This document shows positions 7,225 through 40,326 of a stretch of DNA of 64,000 nt, one piece after another (position 1 is the first letter of the stretch; the number at the start of each line of letters is the position of its first letter). Under the pieces are notes generated by a model. It saw nothing but the letters and a program-made list of their open reading frames with translations. It did not search any database and had not been told where the DNA came from. The stretch spans positions 207 through 64,206 of the forward strand of contig DASZKZ010000056.1 of the NCBI GenBank assembly GCA_035552595.1. Direction: 5' to 3'. A program made the position numbers and the translations under genes. Source of the stretch: Candidatus Dormiibacterota bacterium (GTDB lineage: Bacteria > Chloroflexota > Dormibacteria > Aeolococcales > Aeolococcaceae).

Positions 7225-8634
7225 CTACCGCTCACCCTGCGGACCGAGCAGGTGGGCGAGCCGGCTCACCTCGTCCGCCTCCCAGAGGTGTTCCAGCGCC
7301 GCCAGCAGGGCCTCGGCGCGCTGCGTGCCCAGGCTGGGGGCGGCCGTGGCTCGGAACTTGTCGCGATGGTCGTCGTCACTCATCGGGTTGCCCGGGCCGC
7401 CGCGCTGCGCAGGCACATCCTCGTCGAAGCGGCGTCCGTCCCTGGTCTCCAGCCTCACGCGGGCAGGAAAGCCCGTCGCGGGCATGCTGGGATCGCCGTG
7501 ACAATACACCCGGGCCGCGAGGTCGGCGATCTCCTGATCGGCCAGCACCGCGTCGGTGTAATCCTCGACCTCCGCATGACCGAGAACGGCCAGGATGGCA
7601 ACGGAGTAGGGAAGGCTGAACTTCATGTGGTACACGGTCCTGGGATGGATCTTGGCCTCTCGGGGCTCGCAGACCACGGGCAGGCACTCCTCGGGAACGG
7701 TCGTGTCGATGCGGAGAATGTCGTGGTGCTGCAGGTTCTGCGCCCGCATGATGGCGGCCACGGCGTCCATCGTGGAATGGTTCCAGGCGCCGTTGCTGTA
7801 GGGCTTGAAGGTGGTGCCGGGGAGCAGCCAGGTGTCGCCGAGACCGGCGATCACGGCGCTGAGATCCCAGGTCTCCTCGTCGTTGTGGAGCAGCACTCCG
7901 TACAGGCCCCAGGGACTCTCGAGAACCTCCTTGGGGCCCACGAAGCCGCGTTCCGCCAGGAGCGCCGCGGTGATCCCCGCCTGCACGCTCCAGGCCGGAT
8001 GCAGCCGCTTCACCCAGCTGCCGTCATGCAGCCCCACCAGGAGTCCGGCGGCCTGGCTGCCCGCCAGGCCCAGCGCGTTGGCCATTCGCTCGGGATCGAG
8101 ATCGAGAAGCCGCCCGGAGGCCACGGCCGCGGTGAAGGGACCCACCACACCAGTGGCGTGGAATCCGCGCATGTGAAAGCGGTGTGGAGCGGCAGCGCCG
8201 ATGCGCAGCCCCACCTCGGCTCCCGCCACCAGCGCGGTCAGCATGGCGGCGCCGCTGGCCCCGACCTTCTCGGCCACGGCCAGGCTGGCGGGGACCGCGA
8301 GACAACCGATGTGCACCATGGCGACGCTGTGGGTGTCGTCGTAGTCCGGGCCGTGGGCAAAGGCCGCGTTGACGAAGCCCGCGTGCGCCGCCGGCAGCCT
8401 CGTGGTCGTCCCCAGCGCGGTGGATTCCTCGACACCGCCCATGTCCGTGAAGACACCCTGGACCATCTCCGCGAAGTCCATACGGGAGCCGGCGAGAGCG
8501 ACGCCGATGGTGTCCACCAGACGCCAGGTCGCGTCCGCCTTCACGGGCTCTGGGATGGCGTCGGGCTGCAGGCCGGAGAAGTACTCCGCCAGTGCCCCGG
8601 TCAACGACAGCTCGGCTGTGATCGTGTCCATCAA
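7225..8634 (-). CDS. MmgE/PrpD-family protein, paralog 1
   Basis: 469 aa: ..LVDTIGVALAGSRMDF..FAHGPDYDDTHSVAMVHIGCL..MRGFHATGVVGPF.. Confidence 0.85.
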   Translation of the reverse strand: MMDTITAELSLTGALAEYFSGLQPDAIPEPVKADATWRLVDTIGVALAGSRMDFAEMVQGVFTDMGGVEESTALGTTTRLPAAHAGFVNAAFAHGPDYDDTHSVAMVHIGCLAVPASLAVAEKVGASGAAMLTALVAGAEVGLRIGAAAPHRFHMRGFHATGVVGPFTAAVASGRLLDLDPERMANALGLAGSQAAGLLVGLHDGSWVKRLHPAWSVQAGITAALLAERGFVGPKEVLESPWGLYGVLLHNDEETWDLSAVIAGLGDTWLLPGTTFKPYSNGAWNHSTMDAVAAIMRAQNLQHHDILRIDTTVPEECLPVVCEPREAKIHPRTVYHMKFSLPYSVAILAVLGHAEVEDYTDAVLADQEIADLAARVYCHGDPSMPATGFPARVRLETRDGRRFDEDVPAQRGGPGNPMSDDDHRDKFRATAAPSLGTQRAEALLAALEHLWEADEVSRLAHLLGPQGER

Positions 8635-9434
8635 GTTGCTCCTCCGGCCACGGCTGATAGGTCAGTGCGCACGTAGTCCTGATCGAAGCTCCCGTCCGCG
8701 CGGCGCAGCTCCACGACGGCTCGGGCTTCGACACGACGCTGAAACTCAGGAGAATCTGCCGCCGTCATCGATGACGAGTAGGCGATCGTCACCTGGCTGC
8801 GGAGCCAGCCGATCAGCGCCTCCCGGTCGGGCAGCGGCCGCCGCTGATGACGGAGCCTCACCCAGCTCTCCGCCTCCGAGAACCCGGCCGCGACCAGACG
8901 TCTCATGTAGGCGGCCGGTGTCGGGAAATACCAGACAGGGCGCACCTTCAACCCCATTCGCCGGGCCTCCTCGGCGAGGATGCGGCGCGCGCTCCTGATC
9001 TGTCCGCGGCCACCGAACTCCGCCCGAAACCTTCCCCGTGGGGCGAGGACGCCGCGAATGTTGCGGAGCACGAGCGGATGGTCTCGCGCCGGGATCCAGT
9101 GGAAGGCGGCGGTCGAGACCACCAGGTCGAAGCTGCCCAGCTCGGGGCCGAGCTGCTGCGCGGAGCCGTGCACGAAGCTGATCCCCGGATGACGCCGCGT
9201 GGCCTCGGCGACCATCGATTCCGAGACATCGAGCCCCACCACCCGGCCGTCGCCGACCATGGCGGCCAGCGTCGCGGTGAGCTCCCCGGTGCCGCAGCCG
9301 ATATCGAGGATGGAGCTGCCGGGGAGAACCTCGAGGGCCTCGAGGAACTCCGCGTCGAAGCTGCGGTGGTGGCCGCTGTGGGCGGCATACAGGGTGGCGT
9401 CCCACTCGACCGCGGAGACACTCGACGGCGTCAC
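8631..9434 (-). CDS. Class I SAM-dependent methyltransferase, trans-aconitate 2-methyltransferase (Tam)-like
   Basis: VEWDATLYAAHSGHHRSFDAEFLEAL..ILDIGCGTGELT..VGLDVSESMVAEA. This is the Tam-like N-terminal W-x3-LY element followed by the GxGxG SAM motif. GTG 9434 lies just after the upstream stop (9439). Confidence 0.7.
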   Translation of the reverse strand: MTPSSVSAVEWDATLYAAHSGHHRSFDAEFLEALEVLPGSSILDIGCGTGELTATLAAMVGDGRVVGLDVSESMVAEATRRHPGISFVHGSAQQLGPELGSFDLVVSTAAFHWIPARDHPLVLRNIRGVLAPRGRFRAEFGGRGQIRSARRILAEEARRMGLKVRPVWYFPTPAAYMRRLVAAGFSEAESWVRLRHQRRPLPDREALIGWLRSQVTIAYSSSMTAADSPEFQRRVEARAVVELRRADGSFDQDYVRTDLSAVAGGAT

Positions 9435-9438
9435 CGCG

Positions 9439-10665
9439 TCACGCCGCGTCGACGACAAAGCTCGCCAGGGCGAGCTTCCGGGCGGCGTCGAGATCGACCT
9501 CGACACCGAGACCGGGACCGCTGGGCGCGCGCACGCTCCCATCGCTGACCGAGAAACCCTCCGGGGCGCTGGCGATCGGGTCCACGTCGACGACGTTGAG
9601 ACCGAGCACGAACTCCGCGGCCAGCGGCGGCGACGCCAGCGAGGAATAGAGATGGGCGCAGGCCGCCGCCTCCAGAAGGCTGCCGTGCGCGACCCCGCCG
9701 AGCGTGGTGCCCAGGCCGGAAGCCTCCGCCAGGGTGGCCATGCGTCGGACGCCGGCAAACCCCGCGCTCTTCCACAGCTTGAGCACCAGGCCGTCGCAGC
9801 AGCCCGCCGCGATCAGGCGCTGGACGTCGGACACGTGGATGGCGCTCTCGTCGATGAGCAGCGGCGCCAGGCCCTGGGCACGGAGCAGGCGCAGGCCCAC
9901 GTGGTCGTCACGGTGCAGCGGCTGCTCCACGTAAGCGACGTGCTCCGCATCGAGCGCGCGCAGGACGCGCAGCGTGGTGGCCAGGTCGTAGCCCTCGTTG
10001 GGGTCGATGCCGATCTCGACGTGGTCACCGACCTCCGCGCGTATCCGCTTGAAGGTGGCGATGTCCTCCTCCCAGCGGGCGCTCGGTCCCATCTTCAGGC
10101 AGAGGATGCGACAGCCGAACTCCGTGACGGCTCGAACCGCCTCCTCGAGCATGTTCTCCGGGGGATTGAGCGAGATCGACCAATCCATGGGGATCGGCGT
10201 CCTGGCGCCCCCCAGAAGCGAATAGATCGGCAAGCCAAAGGTGCGCCCGACCAGGTCGTGGAGCGCGATGTCGACTCCGGTGAGGGCCACGAGGTTGCCG
10301 GGAAGCAGATGGTCGAGCCTGGGGCCGATGAGCTCACGCTCCAGCGCATCGCTGCCGATGAGCGCGGGTCCGAAGTAGTGGCGGAGCGCCGCCACCACGC
10401 TGTCGGTGGTCTCGCCGAGCCACGGTGTCGGCGGGCGCACCTGGGCGAAACCGGACACCCCGTCAGTGCTCTCGATGCGGATGAGCACGGGGTCTCCCAC
10501 CCAGGGTCGCTCGTTGTCGCCGGCCACCACCCCCTTGGAGAGCGTGCGCCGGAAGTTGAGGCGGACCTTCATCGGCAGGATCTCGACTCGACGCACGGTC
10601 ACCCTCGGCGCCACCGCGGAGCCTGGGGACGGCGCCACCGTGTGCTGATCGGGAACGACACTCAT
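9439..10665 (-). CDS. Enolase-superfamily enzyme (mandelate racemase/muconate lactonizing family), paralog 2
   Basis: ..GVDIALHDLVGRTFGLPIYSLLGG..GIDPNEGY..YVEQPL..IDES... ATG 10665 is preceded by GGGAGGA about 10 nt upstream. Confidence 0.8.
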   Translation of the reverse strand: MSVVPDQHTVAPSPGSAVAPRVTVRRVEILPMKVRLNFRRTLSKGVVAGDNERPWVGDPVLIRIESTDGVSGFAQVRPPTPWLGETTDSVVAALRHYFGPALIGSDALERELIGPRLDHLLPGNLVALTGVDIALHDLVGRTFGLPIYSLLGGARTPIPMDWSISLNPPENMLEEAVRAVTEFGCRILCLKMGPSARWEEDIATFKRIRAEVGDHVEIGIDPNEGYDLATTLRVLRALDAEHVAYVEQPLHRDDHVGLRLLRAQGLAPLLIDESAIHVSDVQRLIAAGCCDGLVLKLWKSAGFAGVRRMATLAEASGLGTTLGGVAHGSLLEAAACAHLYSSLASPPLAAEFVLGLNVVDVDPIASAPEGFSVSDGSVRAPSGPGLGVEVDLDAARKLALASFVVDAA

Positions 10666-10735
10666 CTGTCCGCGGTCCTCCCTGGTTCTGTCCTCTTCCG
10701 ACGGCATCGATCGCAGCTGGGCACGTCTCCTCCCC

Positions 10736-12028
10736 TCAGGTCGCGCTGACCACGCCGACATCCACCGCGCGAGTGGGCCGTTCGCGCACCTGTCGCATCA
10801 ACAGCGCCCCCACCACCAGGGCGGCGGCCACGCACAACCAGCCCACCCGGTAGGAACCGCTGACATCGACGAGCAGCCCGAACGCGACCGGCCCACCGAA
10901 GATGCCCACCTGGCTGATGGTCATCCCGTAGGCGACCGAACGGCCGCGCTTGTCGCTCGGCGCGATCTCCGACAGGAGGGTGATGTACACACCGTTCCAA
11001 CCGATGACCGTGGCGCCCAGCGCGAACACAAATGGGAAGAGGGCGTATTGGGGCGTGGTGACCGGCAGCCACGCCAGGATCACGAAGCCGCCCGCTGCGA
11101 GCAGGCTCACCAGGATCAAGGGGCCACGCCGGTGGCGCTTGAAGGGGTGATCGCTGACCGTGCCCCAGGCCAGCCGTCCGACCACCCCGCCGATGTTGGC
11201 GGCGACCAGGAAGAGTGACCCTTCCGCGAGCGGCAGGTGCCAGCTCTCGTACAGATAGAGGGCGATGTAGCTCACCAGGACGAACTGGCCCAGGGTCAGG
11301 AAGATCCCGGCCAGGCCTATGAAGGTGGCGTCGCGGGTGGCCACCGCTCGCAGTGATCCGCGCTCCCGGCGGAGAGGGGCGCGCCTGGTCTGCGGCGCCC
11401 CGCTGACCCACAGGAAGCCGACCACAGCGCCGAGCACGGCGAGGCCCCCCGCAACCAGCAGCGCGACCCGCCAGCCGGCGGCGATGGCGATGGGCGGGAG
11501 GATCAGCGCGGCCAGCGCACCGCCGAGCGGGATGCCTGTCTGACGGATGCTCATGATGAAGCCGCGATCGCGCGCGGCGAACGCCGAGATGATCGCGGTG
11601 CTGCCCGCCGGCGTCGGCGTGGCGCCGGCGAGGCCCACGATGATGAGCAACGGCACCAGGAGGATGAAGCTGGGTGCGAACGCCGCCACCGCCGTCACCA
11701 GGCCGGTGGCGATCCCCCCGGCGACGAGCACGCGACGGTCGCCGAGGATGTCCACCGCCCATCCGGCGGGAAGCAGGGCCAGCATGGTGCCCAGGTTGAG
11801 CACGGTCGCGAAGATCCCCACCTCCGGACGCGTCAGCCCGAGGTCGAGCTTGGCGAAGGGCGCCAGCGCCGGGAAGCCCTGGGTCACGATCGAGATGGTC
11901 AGCTGGATGAGCAGCGCGGAGCCGAGGATTCGCCAGCGGGAGCGCTGTGCGCCCGGCCTGGTCGCCGCCACCGGGGACGCGGCAGATGGGGCCGCGGCGG
12001 GCGGTCGGGGTGGCGACGGCGCGGTCAT
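10736..12028 (-). CDS. MFS transporter (12-TMS type)
   Basis: 430 aa of hydrophobic repeats with the MFS loop motif AGWAVDILGDRRVLV. It overlaps the upstream gene by 4 nt. Confidence 0.8.
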   Translation of the reverse strand: MTAPSPPRPPAAAPSAASPVAATRPGAQRSRWRILGSALLIQLTISIVTQGFPALAPFAKLDLGLTRPEVGIFATVLNLGTMLALLPAGWAVDILGDRRVLVAGGIATGLVTAVAAFAPSFILLVPLLIIVGLAGATPTPAGSTAIISAFAARDRGFIMSIRQTGIPLGGALAALILPPIAIAAGWRVALLVAGGLAVLGAVVGFLWVSGAPQTRRAPLRRERGSLRAVATRDATFIGLAGIFLTLGQFVLVSYIALYLYESWHLPLAEGSLFLVAANIGGVVGRLAWGTVSDHPFKRHRRGPLILVSLLAAGGFVILAWLPVTTPQYALFPFVFALGATVIGWNGVYITLLSEIAPSDKRGRSVAYGMTISQVGIFGGPVAFGLLVDVSGSYRVGWLCVAAALVVGALLMRQVRERPTRAVDVGVVSAT

Positions 12029-13425
12029 CGCGCGACGGCGTGCGGCTGCGCCCGGGCCGCGTGCACCCCGGCGCGCAGGCCGGTGACCAGCGCGGCGGAC
12101 AGTCCTCCCGCGTAGCCAACATTGGAGATCCGTCCGACGTCGGCGCCGGCCACGAACAGCCCCGGCACCGGCCGGCCGTCGCGGTCGAGCGCCCGCCCCT
12201 GGGGATCAACCCGAAGGCCGCCTTCGGTGAAGGTCACGCCGGGGATCACCCGCACCGCATGGTAGGGCGCCTCCCGCAGCGTGTGCAGACCCGAAGCCCG
12301 CGGCATCGGCAGGGCGCCCGCGTCGCCGCGCTCGGCGGCGGCGTCGAAGCCGACGATGGTGGCCAGCGCAACCGACTGCGGCACTCCGAAGTCGGCGAGC
12401 CGGCGGCAGAGCGCTTCACGGCTCTCCGCCTGCAGAACCGTTCCACCGGCGGCGCGGACCGCTTCCAGCGGGTCCCTGGGGAGCAGGTCCGGGATGAACG
12501 ACTCCATGACACGGTCGCGACGCCCCGCCTCGTCGAGGACGATGAACCCGGTGGCCTCCGTCTGCCTGAGAAGCTCGAGCCCGCAGACCGCGTCACCGCG
12601 ACTCTCGTCCACGAAGCGGACCCCGTGGAGGTTGAGGAGCAGGCACACCTCCACGTAGAACTGGGTCATGGGCCGGAACGCGGCCGGCTCCATGGGACCG
12701 GGCAGGGCCGGCATCACATGCGCGTACACGGCGTTGAGGCCGCCGCTGGTGGCCGCGCCCGCATCCACGGCGAGGCGGAAGCCGTCTCCTGTGCACGAGG
12801 GGCTGGCACGGAGCAGGGCGCGGTCCGACCACGGGCTCACGTGGCGGCTCATCAGCTCCACGTCTCCCTGGAATCCACCGGAGGCGACCACCACCGCGGT
12901 GGTCTTTACCGTCTCGGCTCCGCGCGGGCCTTGCACGCGGACTCCGATCACCGCACCATCACCGTCCTGCTCCAGGCCGACCACGCGCGATCGGCAGCTC
13001 ACCGTGCCGCCCCGGGCCTCGAGCGACTCCACCAGGGGGCGCACGGCACCGGACACCGGGTCCGGCTCGACCCGGTAACCGGCGCCGGCGCGATCGGGGC
13101 CGAGCTCCTGGTGGAGCGGACCGAGCCGCACCTGATGAGCGCGCAGCCACTCGATCCCGGTGTCGAAATCCTCGACCAGGGCTCGCCCCAGCGCCTGGTC
13201 GCCGTGCGGGATCAGGCGCATGTACTCATCGACCGAGGGGAGCGTCCACACGTAGCCTCCCGACAGCGCCAGCGATCCCCCGGGCTGATCGGTCTTCTCC
13301 AGCACGGTCACGCGGGCCCCGTCCTCAGCGGCGGCGAGCGCCGCGACCAGGCCTCCCATGCCCGCACCGCACACCACCACGTCCGTCTCCCACCGCGAAT
13401 CCGGGGAGCTCGCCGGGTTGGTCAT
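12025..13425 (-). CDS. FAD-dependent oxidoreductase (fumarate reductase / TcuA / KstD-like flavoprotein)
   Basis: DVVVCGAGMGGLVAALAAAEDGARVTVLEK (Rossmann fold) and a C-terminal VTFTEGGLRVD..GLFVAGADVG. Confidence 0.8.
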   Translation of the reverse strand: MTNPASSPDSRWETDVVVCGAGMGGLVAALAAAEDGARVTVLEKTDQPGGSLALSGGYVWTLPSVDEYMRLIPHGDQALGRALVEDFDTGIEWLRAHQVRLGPLHQELGPDRAGAGYRVEPDPVSGAVRPLVESLEARGGTVSCRSRVVGLEQDGDGAVIGVRVQGPRGAETVKTTAVVVASGGFQGDVELMSRHVSPWSDRALLRASPSCTGDGFRLAVDAGAATSGGLNAVYAHVMPALPGPMEPAAFRPMTQFYVEVCLLLNLHGVRFVDESRGDAVCGLELLRQTEATGFIVLDEAGRRDRVMESFIPDLLPRDPLEAVRAAGGTVLQAESREALCRRLADFGVPQSVALATIVGFDAAAERGDAGALPMPRASGLHTLREAPYHAVRVIPGVTFTEGGLRVDPQGRALDRDGRPVPGLFVAGADVGRISNVGYAGGLSAALVTGLRAGVHAARAQPHAVAR

Positions 13426-13440: not shown

Positions 13441-14142
13441 TCAGCCGACCAGGATGCGGGCGACTTCGTCGCTGCGACGCAGCTCCGCCGCCTTCCCCGA
13501 GGAGACATTGCGACCCTGGGCGAGCAGGTACACCGAGTCGGCGTGGTCCATGGCCATGCTGGCGTTCTGCTCCACCACGAGCAGGCCCACCCCGAGCTCG
13601 CGGATGCGGTCGATCTGCTCCCAGACGCGCTCGGCATAGAGTGGTGAGAGCCCGGCCGTGGGCTCGTCGAGGATGGCCACCTTGGGTTCGGTCATGAGCA
13701 GCCTGGCCAGCGCCAGCATCCGCTGCTGCCCGCCCGACAGGGTCCCGCTCTTCTTCTGACGGTCCTTGGCGAGATCGGGGAAGAGCTCGAGAACTGTGTC
13801 GATGCGGGCCTGCATGGTGTTGCGCAGGGTGTACCCGCCCATCTGGAGGTTTTCGAGCACCGACATCTGATCGAAGATGTTCATGAGCTGCGGCAGGTAG
13901 CCGACGCCACGCCGCACCAGCTTGTGCGGGCCCATGCCGGTGACGTCCTCGCCGTTCAGCTCGACGCGTCCTGATGAGACGGTGAGCAGGCCCATGATGG
14001 CCTTCGCCAGGGTCGACTTCCCCGCTCCGTTGGGCCCCAGGATCACGGTGGTGGCCCGTGCCTCGGCGTGGACCGTCACCCTGTCGAGGATGGGGGGGCC
14101 GTCGTATCCGGCGGTCACGTCGACGGCGCTCAGCTCAGGCAT
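13441..14142 (-). CDS. ABC transporter ATP-binding protein (LivF-like)
   Basis: Walker A GPNGAGKST, signature LSGGQQRML, Walker B ILDEP. Confidence 0.9.
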   Translation of the reverse strand: MPELSAVDVTAGYDGPPILDRVTVHAEARATTVILGPNGAGKSTLAKAIMGLLTVSSGRVELNGEDVTGMGPHKLVRRGVGYLPQLMNIFDQMSVLENLQMGGYTLRNTMQARIDTVLELFPDLAKDRQKKSGTLSGGQQRMLALARLLMTEPKVAILDEPTAGLSPLYAERVWEQIDRIRELGVGLLVVEQNASMAMDHADSVYLLAQGRNVSSGKAAELRRSDEVARILVG

Positions 14143-14952: not shown

Positions 14953-14967
14953 GCGTGCTCCTGCGGC

Positions 14968-16832: not shown

Positions 16833-16833
16833 C

Positions 16834-16859
16834 GGCGCGCCCTCCTTCGAGTGCGCGCC
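16834..16859 (-). promoter_or_regulatory. Intercistronic stem-loop enclosing the permease Shine-Dalgarno
   Basis: GGCGCGC (16834-16840) and GCGCGCC (16853-16859) form 7-bp arms. The 12-nt loop carries the complement of GGAGG, 8 nt before ATG 16832. Confidence 0.3.
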
Positions 16860-16901
16860 GATGTCCGGCCCGGTGTGATGGATGCCATTGCCCTGACCCT
16901 C

Positions 16902-18173: not shown

Positions 18174-18287
18174 TCCCTCACGCCGGAACCGGCGTCACAC
18201 TTGGCGGACATCCCTGGAAGGTTTCGAGCACCGGAGCCAGTCCCCCAACCCGGGCCCAGGAGCACCCCGTGGGAAGATCAGGAGCGC

Positions 18288-18316
18288 AGGATAGGCAGTC
18301 GTGGGGCCACTGTCAA
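18288..18316 (-). promoter_or_regulatory. Sigma-70-like promoter candidate for the ABC importer operon
   Basis: On the minus strand TTGACA (18316-18311), a 17-nt spacer, then TATCCT (18293-18288). This implies a leader of about 110 nt. Confidence 0.35.
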
Positions 18317-18323
18317 GACTTCT

Positions 18324-18337
18324 CGATAGAATATATG
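18324..18337. promoter_or_regulatory. AT-rich motif copy (b), CGATAGAATATATG, upstream of the ABC importer operon
   Basis: The reverse complement contains TATATTCTATCG, identical over 12 nt to copy (d). It lies 8 nt upstream of a TTGACA -35 box. Confidence 0.4.
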
Positions 18338-18353
18338 TGGTGGTCATGCGCAC

Positions 18354-32315: not shown

Positions 32316-33721
32316 TCAGCCGGGTCCGCCACCGTCAGCTGCATCAGCGCGGCCACGTCGGGAGCATCCCAGCCGTTCTCGAGCCGGGTGAGAAGCTGCT
32401 CGGTGCGCTCCACCCCGAGGGTGCGCTGCACGTTGCCACGGAACTTGCGGCGGTGGTCGTCGGGCGTGAAGGGGTTGGCCGAGTTGCCTCGCTGCGCCGG
32501 CACGTCCTCGAGGAACGTGCGGCCCTCTCGGGTGGTGATCTCCACCCGCGCCGGGAAGCGGTCGGGCTCCATGCGCGCATCGACATGGGCGTGCACGCGC
32601 TCGGCCAGGTCGGTGATGCGCGAATCGGCGAGCACCTCGTCGGTGAAGTCGTCCACCTCCACGGTGCCGCGCACCAGCAGCATGGCGACCGCGTACTGCA
32701 CGCCGAACTTCATGTGGTACGCGGAGGCGGGACGGACCTTGGCCTCCCGGGGCTCGGCGATGATGGGCACGGCGCGCTCGGGGAGGTGCACGTCGATGCG
32801 CTCGATGTCGGCGACGGCGAGGTGCTCGCGACGCACGATCTCGGCAGCGCCATCCATCGACGCATGATTCCACACGCCGTTGGGCCATGGCTTGTACGTG
32901 GTCTCGGGGAGCATCCACCGCTCACCGAGGCCGGCGTCGATGCGATCCAGATCGAAGGTCGCCTCGTCCCCGTGGAGCAGCGCGTTGTAGAACCCGAACC
33001 TCCCCTCGATGACCTCGGCGGGGCCGGTGTATCCCTCGGCGGCCAGCAGGGCGCAGGTGAGACCGCCCTCCACGCCCCAGCCGGGGTGGAGGCGCTTGAC
33101 CCAGCTCCCGTCCACCAGGGTCTGCATCAGCCCGGAGGAGCGGCTGCCCGCCATCCCCAGCGCCATGGTGGTGTGACCGCCATCGAGCCCGAGCAGCCGC
33201 GAGCCGATCCCGGCGGCGGCGAACGGTCCGGCGACCCCGGTGCCGTGCAGGCCACGCTGGTGGAACTGATGCGGTGGCGCGCCCGTGTTGATGCGCAGCG
33301 CCACCTCAGCGCCCAGCACCATGGCGAGAAGGCACTGCGCGCCGGTCGCGCCGGTGGACTCGGCGGCCGCCAGCGCGGCGGGCACCGCCACGGAGCTGAT
33401 GTGCACCGCGGCCACGCCGTTCATGTCGTCGTAGTCGGGACCGTGGCCCACCGCGCCGTTCACGAAACCGGCGAGCGGGGCGGGGAGATGCTGCCCGAAT
33501 CCCATGGTGGTGGCCTGTGGGGTGCCGCCGAAGCGGCCCGCCACGCGCGCCACGATGACGGCGCTCTGCTCGCGCGTTCCCGCGATGCACACGCCCACCT
33601 GGTCGACGAGGCGCCAGCGGGCGTCGTCGACCACGGCGTCGGGCAGTTGTTCGAGCCTGGTGTCGGCGATCCATCGACCGAGGCGTTGCGAGATCGTTGA
33701 CAATCCGGTGGCGGTGGTCAC
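32312..33721 (-). CDS. MmgE/PrpD-family protein, paralog 3
   Basis: ..LVDQVGVCIAGTREQS..GHGPDYDDMNGVAAVHISSV..QRGLHGTGVAGPF... I trimmed the start to GTG 33721, behind AGAGGG. Confidence 0.85.
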   Translation of the reverse strand: MTTATGLSTISQRLGRWIADTRLEQLPDAVVDDARWRLVDQVGVCIAGTREQSAVIVARVAGRFGGTPQATTMGFGQHLPAPLAGFVNGAVGHGPDYDDMNGVAAVHISSVAVPAALAAAESTGATGAQCLLAMVLGAEVALRINTGAPPHQFHQRGLHGTGVAGPFAAAGIGSRLLGLDGGHTTMALGMAGSRSSGLMQTLVDGSWVKRLHPGWGVEGGLTCALLAAEGYTGPAEVIEGRFGFYNALLHGDEATFDLDRIDAGLGERWMLPETTYKPWPNGVWNHASMDGAAEIVRREHLAVADIERIDVHLPERAVPIIAEPREAKVRPASAYHMKFGVQYAVAMLLVRGTVEVDDFTDEVLADSRITDLAERVHAHVDARMEPDRFPARVEITTREGRTFLEDVPAQRGNSANPFTPDDHRRKFRGNVQRTLGVERTEQLLTRLENGWDAPDVAALMQLTVADPAE

Positions 33722-33756
33722 GTGGCCCTCTGCGCGGCGGTGGCTCTCACAGAAAC

Positions 33757-33768
33757 TATATTCTATCG
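33757..33768. promoter_or_regulatory. AT-rich motif copy (d), TATATTCTATCG, between the divergent PrpD paralogs 3 and 4
   Basis: It lies 26 nt upstream of ATG 33795 and 36 nt upstream of GTG 33721. It contains TATATT on the + strand and TAGAAT on the - strand, both -10-like hexamers. Confidence 0.4.
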
Positions 33769-33794
33769 TATCCACGTGTGTACCGAGGAGCCGC

Positions 33795-35195
33795 ATGGCC
33801 GCCGCTGAGCTGACCGACGACCTCAGTCACTTCGTCACCACCGTGCGCCTCGCCGATGTCCCGGATGCGGTGCTCGACGCCGCCAAGCGATCGATCATGG
33901 ACGGGCTGGGGCTCGCCGTCGCAGGTTCGCGAACCGCCGCCGCCCACCTGGCGCGCGAGGAGCTGGAGGCGTACGGATGCGGGGTGGCCGAGGCCACCGC
34001 GCTGGGCACCACGCTGCGGCTGCCGAGCCGGTTCGCCGCCTTCCTCAACGGCCTGGCCATCCACGCCGACGACTACGACGACACCCAGCTCGCCGTGCTC
34101 CCTGACCGCGTCTACGGCCTGCTCACCCACCCCACCGCTCCGGTGCTGCCGGCGGCCCTGGCCATCGCCGAACAGCGCGGCGCGTCGGGCGCCGACCTGG
34201 TGACGGCGTACCTCGCCGGCGTCGAGGTGGAGACCAAGATCGCCGAGGCGATCGCGCCCCGGCACTACGACGACGGATTCCACTCCACCGGCACCGCCGG
34301 AGCCATCGGCGCCGCCGCCGCCGCCGCGCGCATGCTCGGCCTCGACGCCGCTGGGGTGGCCGTGAGCCTGGGCATCGGCGCCTCCCTGGCGGCGGGGCTG
34401 CGCGAGAACTTCGGCACCATGACCAAGCCGCTGCATGCCGGCCGTGCCGCGGAGAGCGGCGTGCTGGCGGCACGTCTGGCACAGCGCGGGTTCACCGCGG
34501 CGCACGACGTGCTCGAAGCCCGGCGCGGCTTCTTCAACGCCGCCGGCGGTGGCTACGACGCGACCATGATCGCGGGGCGCGCCGGCAACCCCTGGACCTT
34601 CGCCGAGCCCGGCGTCTCCATCAAGCCGCATCCCTCCGGCTCGCTCACCCATCCCGCCATGGCCGCGCTCGCCGAGCTCATCGCAGAGCACGACATCGCT
34701 CCCGAGCGGGTGGTGCGGGTCACGGTGGGGACCAACCGGCACATGCCCAACGCGCTCATCCACCACCTGCCCACCGACGAGCTGGCCGCCAAGTTCAGCA
34801 TGGAGTTCTGCATGGCGATCCTGCTGCTGCGGCGGCGCGCCGGGCTCGCCGAGTTCACCGATGAGGTGGTCACCAGCCGGGATGCACAGGCGATGCTGGG
34901 GCGCGTGGAGTTCGGGGTCGATCCCGAAGCGGAGGCGGCCGGCTACAACACCATGACCAGCATCGTCAGGGTCCACCTCGACGACGGCCGCACCCTCGAG
35001 GCCCGCGCCGGCTTCGGCCTGGGCAGCCCGCAGCGCCCCATGGACTCCCAGCGTCTGCTGGCCAAGTTCCTGGAGTGCACGGAGGCGGGCGGGATCTCCG
35101 AGGCGGTCGCGCGAGAGGCGGCCGAGCGCGTCGCCCAGCTGGAGACGGAGGCCAGCCTGGAGCCCATCGTCGCCGCGCTCAGCGCTTCAGCCTGA
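33795..35195 (+). CDS. MmgE/PrpD-family protein, paralog 4
   Basis: MAAAELTDDLSHFV..IMDGLGLAVAGSRT..HADDYDDTQL..DDGFHSTGTAGAIG. GAGGAG lies 5 nt before the ATG. Confidence 0.85.
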   Translation: MAAAELTDDLSHFVTTVRLADVPDAVLDAAKRSIMDGLGLAVAGSRTAAAHLAREELEAYGCGVAEATALGTTLRLPSRFAAFLNGLAIHADDYDDTQLAVLPDRVYGLLTHPTAPVLPAALAIAEQRGASGADLVTAYLAGVEVETKIAEAIAPRHYDDGFHSTGTAGAIGAAAAAARMLGLDAAGVAVSLGIGASLAAGLRENFGTMTKPLHAGRAAESGVLAARLAQRGFTAAHDVLEARRGFFNAAGGGYDATMIAGRAGNPWTFAEPGVSIKPHPSGSLTHPAMAALAELIAEHDIAPERVVRVTVGTNRHMPNALIHHLPTDELAAKFSMEFCMAILLLRRRAGLAEFTDEVVTSRDAQAMLGRVEFGVDPEAEAAGYNTMTSIVRVHLDDGRTLEARAGFGLGSPQRPMDSQRLLAKFLECTEAGGISEAVAREAAERVAQLETEASLEPIVAALSASA

Positions 35196-35212: not shown

Positions 35213-35217
35213 GCGGG

Positions 35218-36798
35218 TCAGTCGTGGGTGGTGCGCAGCGGCATCTCGGGCAGCCGGCTGCCCACAGCCACCGCCAGCACCGCGACCACGAGCCCGAACC
35301 AGAAGGCGGCGTCGAGGCCGGCGCCGAGGCTGTCGTGGAGCAGCCTGCTGGCACCGCTGACCACGCCTCCGGGGAGGTGGTCGAGGGTCGACGCCAGCGC
35401 CGCCTGGCCGCGGCTGGAGAGCAGACCCTGGGTGGCCCCCCGGTCGACGGCGTGGCTCACCGCCGCGCTGGCGGGCAGGCGCGAGGCCAGCTCCGAGGTG
35501 AACCTGCCGATGGTCAGCGTGGTCATCACCGAGATGCCGATGACCTGACCGAGATTGTCGAAGAACTGCCGCGAGGAGTTGGCCGCGCCCAGCATGCTGT
35601 AGGGGAAGGCGCTCTGCACCACCGTCGAAGCCAGCGGGAACACCGTGCCCACGCCCAGCCCCAGCAGGGCCATGGCCCCGTACGCGCTGGCCAGGCTCGA
35701 GGCCGGCGTCAGGGTGACCGCCACCGCCATGCCGGCGACCACGATGACCGGGCCGATGACCGCGTTCCAGTGGTAATGGCCGGTGCGGCTGATGGTCTGC
35801 CCGCTGACCACGTTGCCGACCACGAAGGCGGCCATCAGCGGGAGCAGCTGGAGGCCGGCGTCCTGCGCGGTCTCCCCGCGCACCCCCTGGAGGTAGAGCG
35901 GGAAGAAGGTGAGCAGGCCGAAGAAGACCATGCGGATCAGGAAGCTGAGCCCCACCGCATGGAGGAAGACCGAGTTGCGAAAGAGGTGGGGGGACATCAG
36001 CGGTTCGCGCGTCCTCAGCTGGTGGGCGGCGAAGACGGCGAGCATGACCACGCCGAAGAGCCCGGTGACGATCACCTGCGCGGAGAGCCAGGGCAGGCTG
36101 ACGCCGCCCACCGTCAGGGCGATCAGCGCGCCCAGCAGGCCCAGGCTGAGCAGCGCGATGCCCAGCCAGTCCACCGTCGGCTTGCCGGGACGCCGCACCC
36201 GGGGCAGGACCGCGCCCAGGACGAACAGCGCCAGCACGGCGAGCGGGACCGTCACCAGGAACGTCCAGCGCCAGCCGAACTGGTCGGCGATGACCCCGCC
36301 GACGATCGGCCCCATCATGCTGCCGATCCCGTAGTTGGTCATGATCAGGCCCATCCACTTGGCCCGTTCGCGGGGCGGAAAGATGTCGCCGATGGTGGCC
36401 CCGGTGAGCGCCAGCATGGCGCCGCCACCAGCGCCCGTCACCACCCGCCCCGCGATCAGCTCGGGCATGTTCTGCGCCGCCGCGCAGCCCACCGAGCCGG
36501 CGATGAAGGCCACCAGCCCGATCAGGTAGAAGATGCGCCGCCCCAGCAGGTCGGACAGCTTGCCCACCACCGGCACGCAGATGGTGGCCGCGAGCGTGAA
36601 GCTGGCGAACACCCAGGCGTAGAGGTTGACGCCGTGGAGCTCGTCCACCATGGTCGGCGCGGAGTTGGCCACGATGGTGCTGGCCAGCACCGAGATGAAC
36701 ATCACCAGCATGACCCCGGCCAGAGCCCAGGCGCGCCGGCTGCCGGTGATCTGGTGCGAGAGGAGCGCGGTCGGCGCCGCGCCCGGACTGGGGTTCAC
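35218..36798 (-). CDS. MFS transporter (14-TMS DHA2/EmrB-like)
   Basis: 526 aa, about 14 hydrophobic segments, motif GKLSDLLGRRIFY. Confidence 0.8.
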   Translation of the reverse strand: MNPSPGAAPTALLSHQITGSRRAWALAGVMLVMFISVLASTIVANSAPTMVDELHGVNLYAWVFASFTLAATICVPVVGKLSDLLGRRIFYLIGLVAFIAGSVGCAAAQNMPELIAGRVVTGAGGGAMLALTGATIGDIFPPRERAKWMGLIMTNYGIGSMMGPIVGGVIADQFGWRWTFLVTVPLAVLALFVLGAVLPRVRRPGKPTVDWLGIALLSLGLLGALIALTVGGVSLPWLSAQVIVTGLFGVVMLAVFAAHQLRTREPLMSPHLFRNSVFLHAVGLSFLIRMVFFGLLTFFPLYLQGVRGETAQDAGLQLLPLMAAFVVGNVVSGQTISRTGHYHWNAVIGPVIVVAGMAVAVTLTPASSLASAYGAMALLGLGVGTVFPLASTVVQSAFPYSMLGAANSSRQFFDNLGQVIGISVMTTLTIGRFTSELASRLPASAAVSHAVDRGATQGLLSSRGQAALASTLDHLPGGVVSGASRLLHDSLGAGLDAAFWFGLVVAVLAVAVGSRLPEMPLRTTHD

Positions 36799-37949
36799 GC
36801 GTTCAGGCCACCCCGCTCGACGAGCTGCTGCGCGATGACGTTGCGCTGCAGCTCGTTGGTGCCCTCGCCGACGATCATCAGCGGCGCGTCACGGAAGTAG
36901 CGCTCGATGTCGTACTCCGTCGAGTAGCCGTTGCCGCCGTGGACGCGCAGCGCGTCGAGAGCGATCGACATGGCCGCCTCCGACGCGAAGAGCTTGGCCA
37001 TGCCCGCCTCCAGGTCGCTGCGCTCTCCTGACTGGTAGCGCTCGGCGGCGAACTGGAGCAGCTGGCGCGCGGCGGTCAGCCGCGTGGCCATGTCGGCGAG
37101 CAGGTTGCCGACCGACTGATGCTTCCAGATGGGCTTGCCGAAGGCCTCGCGCTGCTGGGCGTAGGCGAGGGCGTCCTCGAAGGCGGCGCGGCCCACACCC
37201 ACGGCGCGCGCGGCCACCTGGATGCGGCCGATCTCGAGCCCCTTCATCATCTGGGCGAAGCCGCGACCCTCCTCGCCGCCCAGCAGCGTGTCCGCGGGCA
37301 CGCGGAAGTTGTCGAAGGCGAGCTCACAGCTCTCCACCCCCTTGTAGCCGAGCTTGGGGAGATCGCGCGACACGGTCAGGCCGGGGCCGTGCTCGACGAG
37401 CAGGATGCTGATGCCGCGGTGGCGCGGCTGCGCCGCGGGGTCGGTCTTGCACAGCAGCGCGATGAGCTGCGATCGGCGCGCGTTGGTGATCCACGTCTTG
37501 GAGCCGTTGACCACGTACCCCTCGCCGTCGCTGCGGGCGCTGGTGAGCATCGCCTGGAGATCGGAGCCGCCGCCGGGCTCGGTCAGCGCCATGGTGGCGC
37601 GCACCTCGCCGGTGGCCATGCGCGGCAGCCAGCGGCGGCGCTGCTCCTTGGTGCCGAAGCGGGCCAGCAGCATGGCCACCACCGAGTGGCCGCCCATGGC
37701 GCCGGCCAGGCTCATCCAGCCACGCGCCAGCTCCTCGGTGACCAGCGCGTAGCACGGCGCCGACACCGCGCCCTCACCGTAGGGCGCGGGCACCGCCAGT
37801 CCGAAGATGCCGATGCGCTTCATCTGTTCGATGAGCCGCTCCGGATACACGTTGCCGTGCTCCAGCTCGCGAGCCGCGGGGCGCACCTCGCGGTCGACGA
37901 AGTCGCGCACCGTGCGCACCACGGCGAGCTCCTCCGCAGCGAGCGTCAT
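36795..37949 (-). CDS. Acyl-CoA dehydrogenase
   Basis: ..ALTEPGGGSDL..NGSKTWITNA..YAQQREAFGKPI..VHGGNGYSTEYDIERYFRDA..EGTNE. Confidence 0.9.
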   Translation of the reverse strand: MTLAAEELAVVRTVRDFVDREVRPAARELEHGNVYPERLIEQMKRIGIFGLAVPAPYGEGAVSAPCYALVTEELARGWMSLAGAMGGHSVVAMLLARFGTKEQRRRWLPRMATGEVRATMALTEPGGGSDLQAMLTSARSDGEGYVVNGSKTWITNARRSQLIALLCKTDPAAQPRHRGISILLVEHGPGLTVSRDLPKLGYKGVESCELAFDNFRVPADTLLGGEEGRGFAQMMKGLEIGRIQVAARAVGVGRAAFEDALAYAQQREAFGKPIWKHQSVGNLLADMATRLTAARQLLQFAAERYQSGERSDLEAGMAKLFASEAAMSIALDALRVHGGNGYSTEYDIERYFRDAPLMIVGEGTNELQRNVIAQQLVERGGLNA

Positions 37950-39106
37950 GCCACGGATCCGGCATCGGCGAGACCGAGCTCGCGAAGGATGCTCTCGGTG
38001 TGCTCGCCCAGCGCCGGCACCGGGTCCATGCGCGCCTCCCTGCCCCGCGGCGTGGCCGGGGGCAGGAGGGCGTCGACGGGACCGCCTGGTGTCTGCACCT
38101 CGCGCCAGCGGTCGCGCTCGCGGAGCACGGGGTGATCGAGGAATTGCGCCACCGAGTTGACCCGTGCGCTGGCCAGCCCGGCGGAGTCGAGAAGCTCGAG
38201 CACCTCGGGCGTGGTCAGTGCGGCGAAGCGGCGGGCGATGATGTCGCTGAGCTCCGCCCGGTTGGCCACCCTGGCGGGGTTGGTGAGGAACCGCTCGTCG
38301 CCGGCCAGCGACGGGTCACCGAGCACGCGTGTGCAGAACGCCGTCCACTCCACCTGGGTCTGAACGGCGATGACCACCGTGCCGCCGTCACCGACCGGCA
38401 CCGGACCGTAGGGTGCGATGGTCGCGTGCTGCGCGCCGCTCCGCTCGGGCTGGCGTCCGCTGTAGCGCGTGTAGTAGGCGGGGGCGCCCATCCACTCGGC
38501 GAGGGCCTCGAACAGGGACACCTCGACGTGCGCACCCTCTCCGTGGCGGGCGCGCTCGTAGAGAGCGGTGAGGATGCCGGTGAAGGCGTACATGCCGGCG
38601 GCGATGTCCGCCACCGAGATGCCCACCTTGGCGACTCCCTGGGGCGAGCCGGTGAGCGCCACCAGCGCCGTCTCGCACTGCACCAGCAGGTCGTACGCCT
38701 TGCGCTGCGCCCAGGGTCCGTCGCCGCCGTACCCGGAGATGTCGCAGACGATCAGCCGCGGGAACCGCCGGCGCAGGCTGGCCGCGTCCAGCCCCAGCCG
38801 GGCGGTGGCCCCGGGACCGAGGTTCTGCACCAGCACGTCGAGGCGGGGAAGCAGGCGTTCGATGACGTCGCGCCCCCGGGGCGACTTCAGGTCCAGGGCC
38901 AGGGACTCCTTGGATCGGTTCAGCCAGACGAAGTATCCCGACTGTCCCAGCACCGACGATTCGTAGCCGCGGGCGAAGTCTCCGCCCTCGGGGCGCTCCA
39001 CCTTGATCACCCGCGCTCCCAGGTCGGCGAGCTGGCGGGTGGCGAACGGCGCGGCCACGGCCTGCTCGAGGCCGAGCACGGTCAGTCCCTCCAGGGGCAG
39101 GGTCAC
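37946..39106 (-). CDS. Family III CoA-transferase, paralog 3
   Basis: LEGLTVLGLEQAVAAPFATRQLADLGARVIKVERP..NLGPGATARLGL. Confidence 0.85.
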   Translation of the reverse strand: MTLPLEGLTVLGLEQAVAAPFATRQLADLGARVIKVERPEGGDFARGYESSVLGQSGYFVWLNRSKESLALDLKSPRGRDVIERLLPRLDVLVQNLGPGATARLGLDAASLRRRFPRLIVCDISGYGGDGPWAQRKAYDLLVQCETALVALTGSPQGVAKVGISVADIAAGMYAFTGILTALYERARHGEGAHVEVSLFEALAEWMGAPAYYTRYSGRQPERSGAQHATIAPYGPVPVGDGGTVVIAVQTQVEWTAFCTRVLGDPSLAGDERFLTNPARVANRAELSDIIARRFAALTTPEVLELLDSAGLASARVNSVAQFLDHPVLRERDRWREVQTPGGPVDALLPPATPRGREARMDPVPALGEHTESILRELGLADAGSVA

Positions 39107-40326
39107 GAGGCGGCCGCCGAGGACGGCAGCTGGCGGCGGAGCAGCGCCGCCGCCGCTCCCCAGGAGAGTCCCTCGAGCAGGCCGGGCACGTCCTCGCCGC
39201 AGGCAGCCAGCTTGGCCTGGAGCTGGTCGGGAGTGGGCGGCTGCGACGGTGATCCGGGCGGCAGCGCCAGGCGCGCTGCCCGGACGGTGCCGTCGCGCAG
39301 CCGCACCTCCACCTCCAGCTCACCGTCGAGCAGACCCGCTCCGCCCGGAGAGGTGATCACCTCCACCGTTTCGACGAGCTCCCGGGCCGAGGGGCGCCGC
39401 ACCGCCGCATCCTCGAAGCTGGCGAAGCCGGGGTAGCCGTCGAGAAGCGTCGCCGCCAGCGCGTACTCGAGGCTGAACTTGCCCTCCAGCCCGGTCGAGG
39501 GCCGGTGATGGATCAGAGGCTGCACGGTCCCCTCCGGGGTGCGCACCACCACGCCCGCCACCTCGCCGGGATCCGCGGTGATGCCCTGCATGGCCGCGAT
39601 CGGCCGCTGCAGCGCGTAGCAGCAGGGGTAGAGCTTGATGGCGAGGCCGCCGGGGACCGCCGGGCCGGCCGCCGCGACCTGCGCCGCTGTCCCACCCACC
39701 AGCGCCAGCCAGTCGTCGAGCGCTGCCGGGTCCGCGCCCGCGCCGGCGGCGGCGAGGCGGGCGGCGCGCAGCCCGGCAGCGGCGGCGAAGCCCACCTGGA
39801 GTGGTTTGGCGGTGGTACCGAAGGCGCGCTGCACACCTCCCGCCGCAGGGACGGCGAGGGCCATGGCGCGGGCCGTCACCTCGGGGTCCAGCCCCATGGC
39901 CACGCATGCGGCCACCGCCGCCGCGGGTGCGCCAGCCGTGCAGGTGGCGTGCCAGCCGCGGGCGTAGTGGCTCCAGCCCAGAGCGCTGCCGAGCCGGGCC
40001 ATGACCCCGGCGCCGGCCAGGTAGGCGCGCGCGTCGCCACCGGCGGCGAGCGTGGCCGCCACGCAGACCACGCTGATGTGCGCCGTCGACTCCATGTGGA
40101 GGTCGTCGAAGTCGAGCACGTGGCCCATCGCCGCCCAGTTGGCGGCCTCGGGCAGAAGGGCGGCGATGGGTCGCAGCGGGTGGGCGCGCGCCGCCAGCGC
40201 CACCGCCACGGTGTCGAGCAGGGAGCGCTCGGCGAGGACGAGGTCGGCGGCGTCGGGGTCCAACGCGGTGGCCCAGGAGGCAAGCTGACCGGCCAGCGTT
40301 GCCGGCCTGACCGCCGCGGCGGTCAC
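39103..40326 (-). CDS. MmgE/PrpD-family protein, paralog 5 (short, 407 aa)
   Basis: ..LLDTVAVALAA..HVLDFDDLHMESTAHISVV..ARGWHATCTAGAPA.. Confidence 0.75.
   Translation of the reverse strand: MTAAAVRPATLAGQLASWATALDPDAADLVLAERSLLDTVAVALAARAHPLRPIAALLPEAANWAAMGHVLDFDDLHMESTAHISVVCVAATLAAGGDARAYLAGAGVMARLGSALGWSHYARGWHATCTAGAPAAAVAACVAMGLDPEVTARAMALAVPAAGGVQRAFGTTAKPLQVGFAAAAGLRAARLAAAGAGADPAALDDWLALVGGTAAQVAAAGPAVPGGLAIKLYPCCYALQRPIAAMQGITADPGEVAGVVVRTPEGTVQPLIHHRPSTGLEGKFSLEYALAATLLDGYPGFASFEDAAVRRPSARELVETVEVITSPGGAGLLDGELEVEVRLRDGTVRAARLALPPGSPSQPPTPDQLQAKLAACGEDVPGLLEGLSWGAAAALLRRQLPSSAAAS

Follow-up and report, generated by a model that had tools for sequence, protein, structure and literature searches.

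Five divergent MmgE/PrpD-family enzymes in a candidate organic-acid catabolic island of a Candidatus Dormiibacterota genome

The stretch of 64,000 nucleotides analyzed here, in the following called the window, stems from contig DASZKZ010000056.1 of a Candidatus Dormiibacterota bacterium and raises the question of what five MmgE/PrpD-family genes (PrpD1 to PrpD5) do within 33 kb of DNA, in the company of three genes for family-III CoA-transferases (CoAT1 to CoAT3). An earlier interpretation of the DNA letters, the sequence-only reading, had proposed several uncharacterised, diverged activities in different operons, and this main claim was borne out by the sequence identities, the phylogeny, and the gene junctions described below. 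Taken as a whole, the explanation toward which we lean, at slightly better than even odds, is that the five PrpD enzymes act on different free acids and belong to an organic-acid catabolic island. In this explanation, the region between 0.4 and 48 kb of the window would represent a conserved catabolic island of at least five tightly coupled operons in an uncultured soil bacterium of the class Dormibacteria (Chloroflexota in GTDB). The results are a set of good leads and overturn nothing.

The window has a G+C content of approximately 70%, and real genes were therefore chosen by codon-position G+C and then subjected to Pfam and NCBIfam family searches. The Pfam searches confirmed all eight genes at the positions given by the sequence-only reading: PrpD1 (7225–8634, minus strand), PrpD2 (27503–28876, plus), PrpD3 (32312–33721, minus), PrpD4 (33795–35195, plus), PrpD5 (39103–40326, minus), CoAT1 (4247–5467, plus), CoAT2 (25403–26647, plus), and CoAT3 (37946–39106, minus). 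Both PF03972 and PF19305 exceeded the Pfam gathering cut-off in each of the five PrpD-family proteins, with 67–219 bits for the N-domain and 74–113 bits for the C-domain (cut-off 32.1). The three CoA-transferases covered the full PF02515 model with 362–409 bits (361.6 bits for CoAT1; cut-off 23.3). The assembly is a metagenome-assembled genome (MAG) of 2.01 Mb in 96 contigs. Whole-genome searches retrieved exactly five PF03972 genes from this 88% complete genome, all within the window, and four PF02515 genes, three of them in the window. According to a rough estimate, five randomly placed genes fall within 33 kb with a chance of about 4 × 10^-7; the clustering of the PrpD genes is not due to chance.

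PrpD1 and PrpD3 share 51.5% identity. All other paralog pairs are 24–35% identical, often over part of their length only, and the top identity of any paralog to a characterised family member is at most 33%. The equivalog models of 2-methylcitrate dehydratase (TIGR02330, NF006943, and NF042438) yielded at best 25–50 bits versus cut-offs of 458–950, and PrpD2 and PrpD5 showed no match at all to the PrpD equivalog models of NCBIfam. Compared with solved structures, all five proteins matched iminodisuccinate (IDS) epimerase, the Bacillus subtilis ‘IRG1’ homolog, and cis-aconitate decarboxylase (CAD) better than true PrpD, albeit weakly (105–187 bits). A maximum-likelihood tree (IQ-TREE quick tree) was calculated from 66 sequences, for which the five paralogs were combined with orthologs on other contigs and with references, among them E. 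coli K-12 PrpD; a second tree was built with FastTree from 195 rows. In the former, each paralog fell into its own orthogroup, with Shimodaira–Hasegawa-like approximate likelihood ratio test (SH-aLRT) values of 98 for PrpD1, 100 for PrpD2 (stem length 1.88), 95 for PrpD3, 99 for PrpD4, and 100 for PrpD5 (stem length 1.78). PrpD1 and PrpD3 are sister groups in a joint clade with a support of 100. No paralog joined a characterised enzyme in the 66-sequence tree, and none of the five grouped with PrpD or CAD in either tree, CAD lying apart from all five orthogroups. The phylogenetic comparison with characterised PrpD, CAD, and IDS epimerase that the sequence-only reading had called for thus left the paralogs in five orthogroups of their own, none of them inside a functionally defined clade. 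The alternative named there, recent duplication, is contradicted by the 24–51% identity and the separate orthogroups. Judged from their sequences, the five paralogs separated long ago and did not arise by recent duplication.

The catalytic positions of the paralogs were aligned to those of IDS epimerase (H85, D88, H99, Y145, H150, K198, and K266) and of the isomerase reference introduced below. Six dicarboxylate-binding or enolate-stabilising residues (His, Asp, His, His, Lys, and Lys) were kept by all five paralogs and every aligned ortholog; across the 66 aligned rows, only the references from E. coli (PrpD) and Cupriavidus deviated. At the second acid/base position, equivalent to Tyr145 of IDS epimerase, the residue was constant inside each clade but different between clades. 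Tyrosine occupies this position in the PrpD4 clade (4/4 rows) and the PrpD5 clade (15/15), histidine in the PrpD1/3 superclade (20/21), and asparagine in the PrpD2 clade (8/8). The complete sets are H94, D97, H108, H154, H159, K209, and K277 for PrpD1 and H93, D96, H107, H154, H159, K209, and K277 for PrpD3 (His class); H85, D88, H99, N144, H149, K197, and K261 for PrpD2 (Asn class); and H90, D93, H112, Y158, H163, K211, and K277 for PrpD4 and H69, D72, H83, Y121, H126, K174, and K231 for PrpD5 (Tyr class). Among 129 diverse family representatives, position 145 was variable, with Tyr as the commonest residue besides Phe, Ser, Ile, His, Ala, Asn, Val, and Trp. The His/Tyr two-base pair, equivalent to H102/Y148 of the Pseudomonas aeruginosa isomerase, is present in PrpD4 (H112/Y158) and PrpD5 (H83/Y121) and not in PrpD1 and PrpD3, which have His, or PrpD2, which has Asn. 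By analogy, we infer that PrpD4 and PrpD5 would be two-base epimerases or racemases and that the other three would use a different proton-transfer chemistry.

Among solved structures, the best relative of PrpD4 is IDS epimerase of Agrobacterium tumefaciens BY6 (PDB 2HP0/2HP3), with 187 bits and 32% identity. PrpD4 and PrpD5, at 30–32% identity, retain its full set of seven catalytic and binding residues. However, the epimerase is not sister to PrpD4 or PrpD5 in either tree, its C–N lyase partner is absent, and PrpD1, PrpD2, and PrpD3 lack the Tyr. CAD (IRG1/ACOD1) and the B. subtilis ‘IRG1’ homolog (PDB 7BRA) share the binding residues with the paralogs. The B. subtilis protein, for which no activity has been demonstrated, is the best solved match for PrpD1, PrpD2, and PrpD5 (105–121 bits). 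CAD differs by a Met at the second-base position and is 25–29% identical to the five paralogs. With 2-methylcitrate dehydratase PrpD/MmgE, the paralogs have in common the two-domain fold and a PrpB-like lyase encoded nearby, whereas E. coli PrpD, at most 24% identical to them, has Arg and Asp in place of two of the His residues. The sequence-only reading had listed these three enzymes as the characterised functions of the family. Its list is out of date, as it misses a fourth enzyme, from the itaconate cluster of Pseudomonas and Cupriavidus: (S)-(R)-methylsuccinate isomerase (Msi), represented by PA0881, C. necator Q0K3E6, and Bxe_B2582 and characterised in 2023–2025 (PMC9875883, PMC12290011).

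The gene contexts differ between the paralogs as well. Each island operon combines its own PrpD-family enzyme, from a separate orthogroup, with its own transporter and/or GntR regulator, and the junction analysis revealed coupling of the units by ATGA or GTGA overlaps. We designate the units A (plus strand, with CoAT1), B (minus, with PrpD1), C (plus, with CoAT2 and PrpD2), D (minus, with PrpD3, divergent from the lone PrpD4), and E (minus, with PrpD5 and CoAT3). Two close pairs of a CoA-transferase and a PrpD gene had been pointed out before, and both were confirmed: PrpD5 and CoAT3 overlap by 4 nt (GTGA, 39103–39106), and CoAT2 and PrpD2 are separated only by a GntR/FCD regulator gene, the stop of which overlaps the PrpD2 start by GTGA. 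As a conserved association, the proximity was seen in roughly half of the PrpD5 orthologs and, with PrpD2, in those contigs that were examined; it fails for PrpD1, PrpD3, and PrpD4.

Unit E consists, in order of transcription, of genes for an aldehyde dehydrogenase (42694–44145), a GntR/UTRA regulator (41948–42712), a thiamine diphosphate (ThDP) enzyme of the acetolactate-synthase type (40323–41951), the short and diverged PrpD5 (407 amino acids), CoAT3, an acyl-CoA dehydrogenase (ACAD; 36795–37949), and a major facilitator superfamily (MFS) transporter (35218–36798), which ends the operon. The genes upstream of PrpD5, assigned by Pfam and NCBIfam, overlap; the ACAD and transporter genes were assigned by Pfam. 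CoAT3 overlaps both the PrpD5 and the ACAD gene by 4 nt, so that the ACAD gene lies one gene away from PrpD5. On the plus strand, divergent from unit E, follow genes for a MaoC-type double hot-dog hydratase (44330–45397), a D-2-hydroxyacid dehydrogenase (after the MaoC gene, within 44330–48066), a PrpB-like lyase of the ICL/PEP-mutase family (within 46088–47278; 300 bits, cut-off 354), and a short-chain dehydrogenase/reductase (SDR; within 47125–48066), all assigned by Pfam and NCBIfam. PrpD5 orthologs with 58–68% identity are widespread in Actinomycetota (Amycolatopsis, Saccharopolyspora, Streptosporangiaceae, Solirubrobacterales, and Acidimicrobiia), and one occurs in Ca. Dormiibacter. At 58 orthologous loci with full flanks, we counted an ACAD ortholog (73–81% identity) at 27, directly adjacent at 20, a CoAT3 ortholog at 26, a GntR/UTRA regulator at 22, and a MaoC hydratase at seven. 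MaoC orthologs with 58–60% identity adjoin PrpD5 orthologs in Amycolatopsis and Planosporangium. In Amycolatopsis rhabdoformis (locus L003), genes for a CitE/HpcH lyase and a MaoC-type hydratase lie directly upstream of the PrpD5 module on the opposite strand. Thus, this locus holds all five functions of the ich-mcd-mmgE-ict-ccl cluster. In the genome of the window, a further CitE-type lyase is encoded on contig C82. A second context was seen in the Solirubrobacterales loci L009 (5684–9194) and L039 (5507–9197), where the PrpD5 ortholog directly follows the molybdopterin-binding large subunit of a xanthine-dehydrogenase/aldehyde-oxidase family enzyme.

The closest functional precedent for this arrangement is the Msi cluster (ich-mcd-mmgE-ict-ccl), which encodes a PrpD-type protein together with an ACAD, a CoA-transferase, a hydratase, and a lyase. 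Msi converts the free acid and works before the CoA-transferase, and the purified enzyme is inactive on methylsuccinyl-CoA (PMC9875883, PMC12290011). It uses a His/Tyr pair within the P. aeruginosa pattern H88/E91/H102/Y148/H152/K202/K266, and its gene always adjoins that of methylsuccinyl-CoA dehydrogenase (PMC9875883, PMC12290011). In a published survey, 96% of the Msi sequences belonged to Pseudomonadota and just 14 to Actinomycetota, all of them Rubrobacterales. A search of a plasmid collection with PrpD5 gave weak matches only (≤38% identity) and led to a Cupriavidus replicon. The ACAD-adjacent PrpD encoded there carries H91/E94/H105/Y151/H155/K205/K269, that is, the P. aeruginosa pattern at a constant offset of +3, and was therefore taken as a valid isomerase reference. 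The likenesses are the His/Tyr pair, found in PrpD4 and PrpD5, the joint occurrence of PrpD, ACAD, CoA-transferase, and hot-dog hydratase genes, to which Amycolatopsis adds one for a CitE-type lyase, and the position of the isomerase ahead of a stereoselective CoA-transferase. The ACAD of unit E is 35% identical to the Cupriavidus enzyme, and its NCBIfam matches are generic. The three family-III transferases of the window found no match in the Cupriavidus locus. None of them reached an NCBIfam equivalog of the named family-III CoA-transferases (succinate–glutarate, mesaconate, formyl-CoA, carnitine, and others), the best scores being 250–279 bits versus a cut-off of 750; the best match of CoAT1 was succinate–glutarate CoA-transferase (279 bits). 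The closest solved relatives of CoAT3 include a dicarboxylate enzyme, succinate–hydroxymethylglutarate CoA-transferase (203 bits). In its functional make-up, the PrpD5 module matches the methylsuccinate route, which supports a similar mechanism; the likeness claimed here concerns the mode of working only.

In the explanation we favor, each PrpD would have a substrate of its own, a substituted succinate-type di- or tricarboxylic acid in the free form, from which it would remove a proton at C2. PrpD4 and PrpD5, with their His/Tyr pair, would act as two-base epimerases or racemases in the manner of IDS epimerase and Msi. PrpD5 may convert the ‘wrong’ enantiomer of a 2-alkylsuccinate-like acid, CoAT3 would then activate the accepted enantiomer, and the ACAD would desaturate the acyl-CoA, the product of which could be hydrated by the MaoC hydratase and cleaved by a CitE-type lyase. 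The PrpD5 module would thereby correspond to the methylsuccinate route of Pseudomonas and Cupriavidus without being orthologous to it. PrpD2, with its Asn, and PrpD1 and PrpD3, with their His, probably perform other chemistry, such as dehydration, decarboxylation, or His/His epimerisation. PrpD3 is predicted to work with an amidohydrolase-fold (lactonase-like) protein, a β-decarboxylating dehydrogenase, and a DRE-TIM protein without metal ligands.

Several observations weigh against this explanation. The interpretation of a His or Asn as second base draws on only three or four characterised enzymes. PrpD5 shares just 27% identity with the isomerase reference from Cupriavidus, and like all five paralogs it has Asp where the isomerases have Glu (E91 in P. 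aeruginosa); its clade is found mainly in Actinomycetota and Dormibacteria. Its placement relative to the isomerase varies with the method. With a single Msi reference on a long branch, PrpD5 and Msi were not joined in the IQ-TREE quick tree, and the approximately unbiased (AU) test did not reject a PrpD5+Msi clade (p = 0.58); in the FastTree phylogeny, the long-branched reference was sister to the His-class PrpD1/3 superclade (support 94). Neither the identity nor the Glu signature supports PrpD5 as an ortholog of the published isomerase. Moreover, 27 of the 58 PrpD5-ortholog loci lack the CoA module, and in Solirubrobacterales the ortholog follows a molybdenum-hydroxylase subunit instead. 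The ThDP enzyme and the aldehyde dehydrogenase, by which the window's operon also differs from the Msi cluster, do not belong to the actinobacterial core. Finally, the closest relative of PrpD1 (71% identity) stands alone in an unrelated context.

A competing idea is that the PrpD proteins beside CoA-transferases act on CoA thioesters, for instance as dehydratases or epimerases of acyl-CoA. In its favor, PrpD5 is translationally coupled to CoAT3, the order CoAT2, GntR, PrpD2 is conserved, and the alternatives first given for PA0881 by De Witt et al. included a methylsuccinyl-CoA isomerase. The purified isomerase is, however, inactive with methylsuccinyl-CoA, no characterised family member uses a CoA ester, and the residues for binding both free carboxylates are retained in all five paralogs, which makes this idea very unlikely. 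The sequence-only reading had suggested either CoA esters or the acids released from them as substrates; the first suggestion meets the same objections, and the second reverses the order of events relative to the Msi precedent. It is also quite unlikely that one or more copies have a known function, as 2-methylcitrate dehydratase acting with the PrpB-like lyase in a methylcitrate cycle or as a CAD making itaconate. The window does encode the PrpB-like lyase and a B12 mutase with MeaB for propionyl-CoA-type metabolism, no other PF03972 gene in the assembly could act as PrpD, and the Asn of PrpD2 sits where E. coli PrpD also aligns an Asn. Against this stand the low equivalog scores, absent altogether for PrpD2 and PrpD5, the low identity to E. 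coli PrpD, and the lack of grouping with PrpD or CAD in either tree. A citrate or methylcitrate synthase was not found in the island, the rest of the genome not having been searched for PrpC.

A biosynthetic role of the island, or at least of unit D, as a pathway resembling 2-oxoacid chain elongation in which PrpD and an amidohydrolase-fold hydratase replace the aconitase-type isomerase, would account for the family set of that operon: a synthase-like DRE-TIM protein, a dehydratase-like PrpD, and a β-decarboxylating dehydrogenase mirror the homocitrate and isopropylmalate pathways, and the four genes are strictly coupled and conserved. We regard it as unlikely, because the DRE-TIM protein lacks the three metal ligands needed for Claisen condensation in all orthologs checked, and the many importers and GntR regulators, together with the absence of PrpD-family genes from 13 of 18 genomes of the genus, are as expected of accessory catabolism. 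Redundant isozymes or decaying duplicates without separate roles are hardly credible. A sibling population does have a decayed PrpD4 ortholog (L091, see below), but the low mutual identity, five intact reading frames with intact catalytic residues, and the conservation of each orthogroup across phyla with its own operon partners speak for separate functions. Beyond free-acid catabolism as such, we tentatively suggest, as a possibility well short of even odds, a modular ‘stereochemical editing and funnelling’ of chiral polycarboxylic acids from soil organic matter, in which four of the five PrpD orthogroups would be new activities, told apart by the second acid/base residue (Tyr, His, or Asn), and the PrpD3 operon with a co-regulated PrpD4 would process a tricarboxylate that forms a hydroxy acid or lactone, by a route that is not yet described and needs no aconitase.

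The four-gene operon of unit D starts with PrpD3 and continues with genes for a DUF6282 protein of amidohydrolase fold (31353–32315, minus; Pfam), an Iso_dh-family dehydrogenase (30244–31356, minus), and a DRE-TIM/HMGL-like protein (28886–30247, minus; the latter two by Pfam and NCBIfam), with GTGA overlaps along the operon. DUF6282 shows an invariant amidohydrolase metal-site pattern (D21-x-H23-x-H25, H57, H179, H204, and D261). A sequence search found no solved relative of it; the nearest folds of its AlphaFold2 (AF2) model (pLDDT 89.8) are phosphotriesterase-like lactonases and renal-type dipeptidases. Because this fold match is only general (TM 0.5–0.6), no specific function was assigned. 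The DUF6282 family has more than 4,500 homologs, which in Streptomyces and Amycolatopsis occur with GntR/FCD, PIG-L, RraA-like, and NMT1-type ABC genes; these contexts lack PrpD, and the idea that DUF6282 always travels with PrpD was rejected. The HMGL-like protein aligns to homocitrate synthase but retains none of the three metal ligands (TLRVIEQ for TLREGEQ and YIRN for HAHN), identically in the four orthologs checked (L088, L089, L090, and L092). Thus, it is not a standard condensing enzyme of the homocitrate/isopropylmalate type and is probably, judging from these replacements, a conserved non-canonical member of the fold.

PrpD4 is always divergent from PrpD3, which suggests that it might be an epimerase supplying the right stereoisomer to the PrpD3 operon. 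The 73-nt intergenic region (33722–33794) contains an AT-rich stretch (AACTATATTCTATCGTATCC) in a genome of 70% G+C and is probably a shared promoter/operator. In L091 (8450–9983), which is near-identical to L090, the PrpD4 ortholog is reduced to a C-terminal fragment of 128 amino acids plus small open reading frames (ORFs), although the island is otherwise intact; this population may be able to do without PrpD4.

Modules of the island were kept in four other metagenomic lineages, L088, L089, L090/L091, and L092, with PrpD orthologs of 49–82% identity. L088, a farmland contig, shares units E, D, PrpD4, and C and their order with the window, including the seven-gene order of the PrpD5 operon and a PrpD3 ortholog with 82% identity. 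L089, a JGI contig, contains the end of unit B, PrpD4, and unit D. The company of PrpD1 is conserved there in the order FAD flavoprotein, MFS, MR_MLE, PrpD1, as in the window but without the methyltransferase. L090 and L091, from a wood metagenome, and L092, from a named Ca. Dormiibacterota MAG, contain unit C, PrpD4, and unit D plus an RraA-like gene. The gene order FAH, hydantoinase, CitE-like, CoAT2 is shared with L088, L090, and L092, and the PrpD3 operon and the divergent PrpD4/PrpD3 pair are kept in L088, L089, L090, and L092. Within the genus, 13 of 18 genomes lack any PrpD-family gene, and the island is therefore accessory. In the Genome Taxonomy Database (GTDB) phylum, 155 of 401 genomes carry the family and about 18 hold at least five copies; at most six candidates were scored per genome, so the sizes of the largest expansions are lower bounds. 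Partial clustering is common, with four of five copies within 17 kb in genome G225 and all three within 11.5 kb in G006. Thus, the five-copy cluster represents the dense end of a recurring pattern and is not unique. No relevant publication on multi-PrpD clusters of Chloroflexi or Dormibacterota emerged from literature searches.

At an E-value of ≤0.001, 19,736 representative clusters (50% identity) match PrpD4. To our knowledge, only four reactions are known for the MmgE/PrpD superfamily. The family occurs in 19% of prokaryotic species (PMC12290011). Since it is very large and mostly unstudied, new orthogroups of unassigned function are to be expected rather than surprising. What the locus offers is five intact, mutually distant members in one small genome, whose conserved operon partners narrow the search for substrates and, together with the clade-specific catalytic signatures, make the five functions directly testable. 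The second acid/base residue provides a simple sequence marker by which family members can be assigned to mechanistic classes. The make-up of the PrpD5 module suggests an extension of the methylsuccinate-type logic, racemisation of the free acid before CoA activation, well beyond Pseudomonadota into Actinomycetota and Dormibacteria by means of non-orthologous components. Such an extension is relevant to the use of small branched or substituted organic acids by slow-growing soil bacteria.

The remaining units are described in the order C, B, and A. The 19345–26647 gene run of unit C, on the plus strand, is linked by ATGA/GTGA overlaps and comprises genes for an FAH-family hydrolase (ORF from 19345, true start probably near 19528), hydantoinase A (20379–22433), hydantoinase B (22430–24154), a long CitE/HpcH-DUF6986 lyase (approximately 24144–25406), all assigned by Pfam, and CoAT2 (PF02515). 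It is followed by the GntR/FCD regulator (26727–27506) and PrpD2. The long lyase, which matches DUF6986, has approximately 420 amino acids and an N-terminal extension, and it adjoins hydantoinase A/B and CoA-transferase genes in L088, L090, and L092 as well. The PrpD2 clade is small, with approximately 35 database proteins above 40% identity, and keeps the company of HydA, HydB, CitE-like, CoAT, and GntR genes in three lineages. In Aeromicrobium wangtongii (L093, 6336–10302), the PrpD2-clade gene follows genes for an FAD_binding_2 flavoprotein and a member of the arylmalonate-decarboxylase/Asp-Glu-racemase family, and it is divergent from a CoA-transferase–crotonase–ACAD–SDR–3HCDH operon. This cultured species could serve to study Asn-class enzymes.

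Unit B, on the minus strand, begins with a tartrate-dehydrogenase-type Iso_dh (18354–19394), the only island enzyme with a specific curated assignment (TIGR02089, 481.8 bits, cut-off 470.4). It continues with a Liv-type ATP-binding cassette (ABC) importer of two ATPases, two permeases, and a binding protein (within 13441–19394; Pfam), a TcuA-like FAD flavoprotein (12025–13425), an MFS transporter (10736–12028), an MR_MLE enzyme of the enolase superfamily (9439–10761), and an S-adenosylmethionine (SAM) methyltransferase (8631 to approximately 9446, start inferred), and ends with PrpD1, the last gene of this long unit. The partner genes between 8631 and 13425, assigned by Pfam and NCBIfam, overlap by 4–26 nt.

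Genes beyond approximately 48 kb are unrelated to the island. At its other end, unit A, on the plus strand, contains the catalytic gene of a B12 acyl-CoA mutase and, downstream of it, CoAT1, which heads a run with an HD-domain protein (5464–6015) and a further MR_MLE enolase-superfamily enzyme (6028–7218), both on the plus strand and assigned by Pfam. The mutase system (395–4236) seems to be split by strand, with MeaB on the minus strand. The catalytic domain of the mutase occupies only the C-terminal half of a plus-strand ORF of 991 amino acids, the true start of which is probably near 2629, with CoAT1 just downstream.

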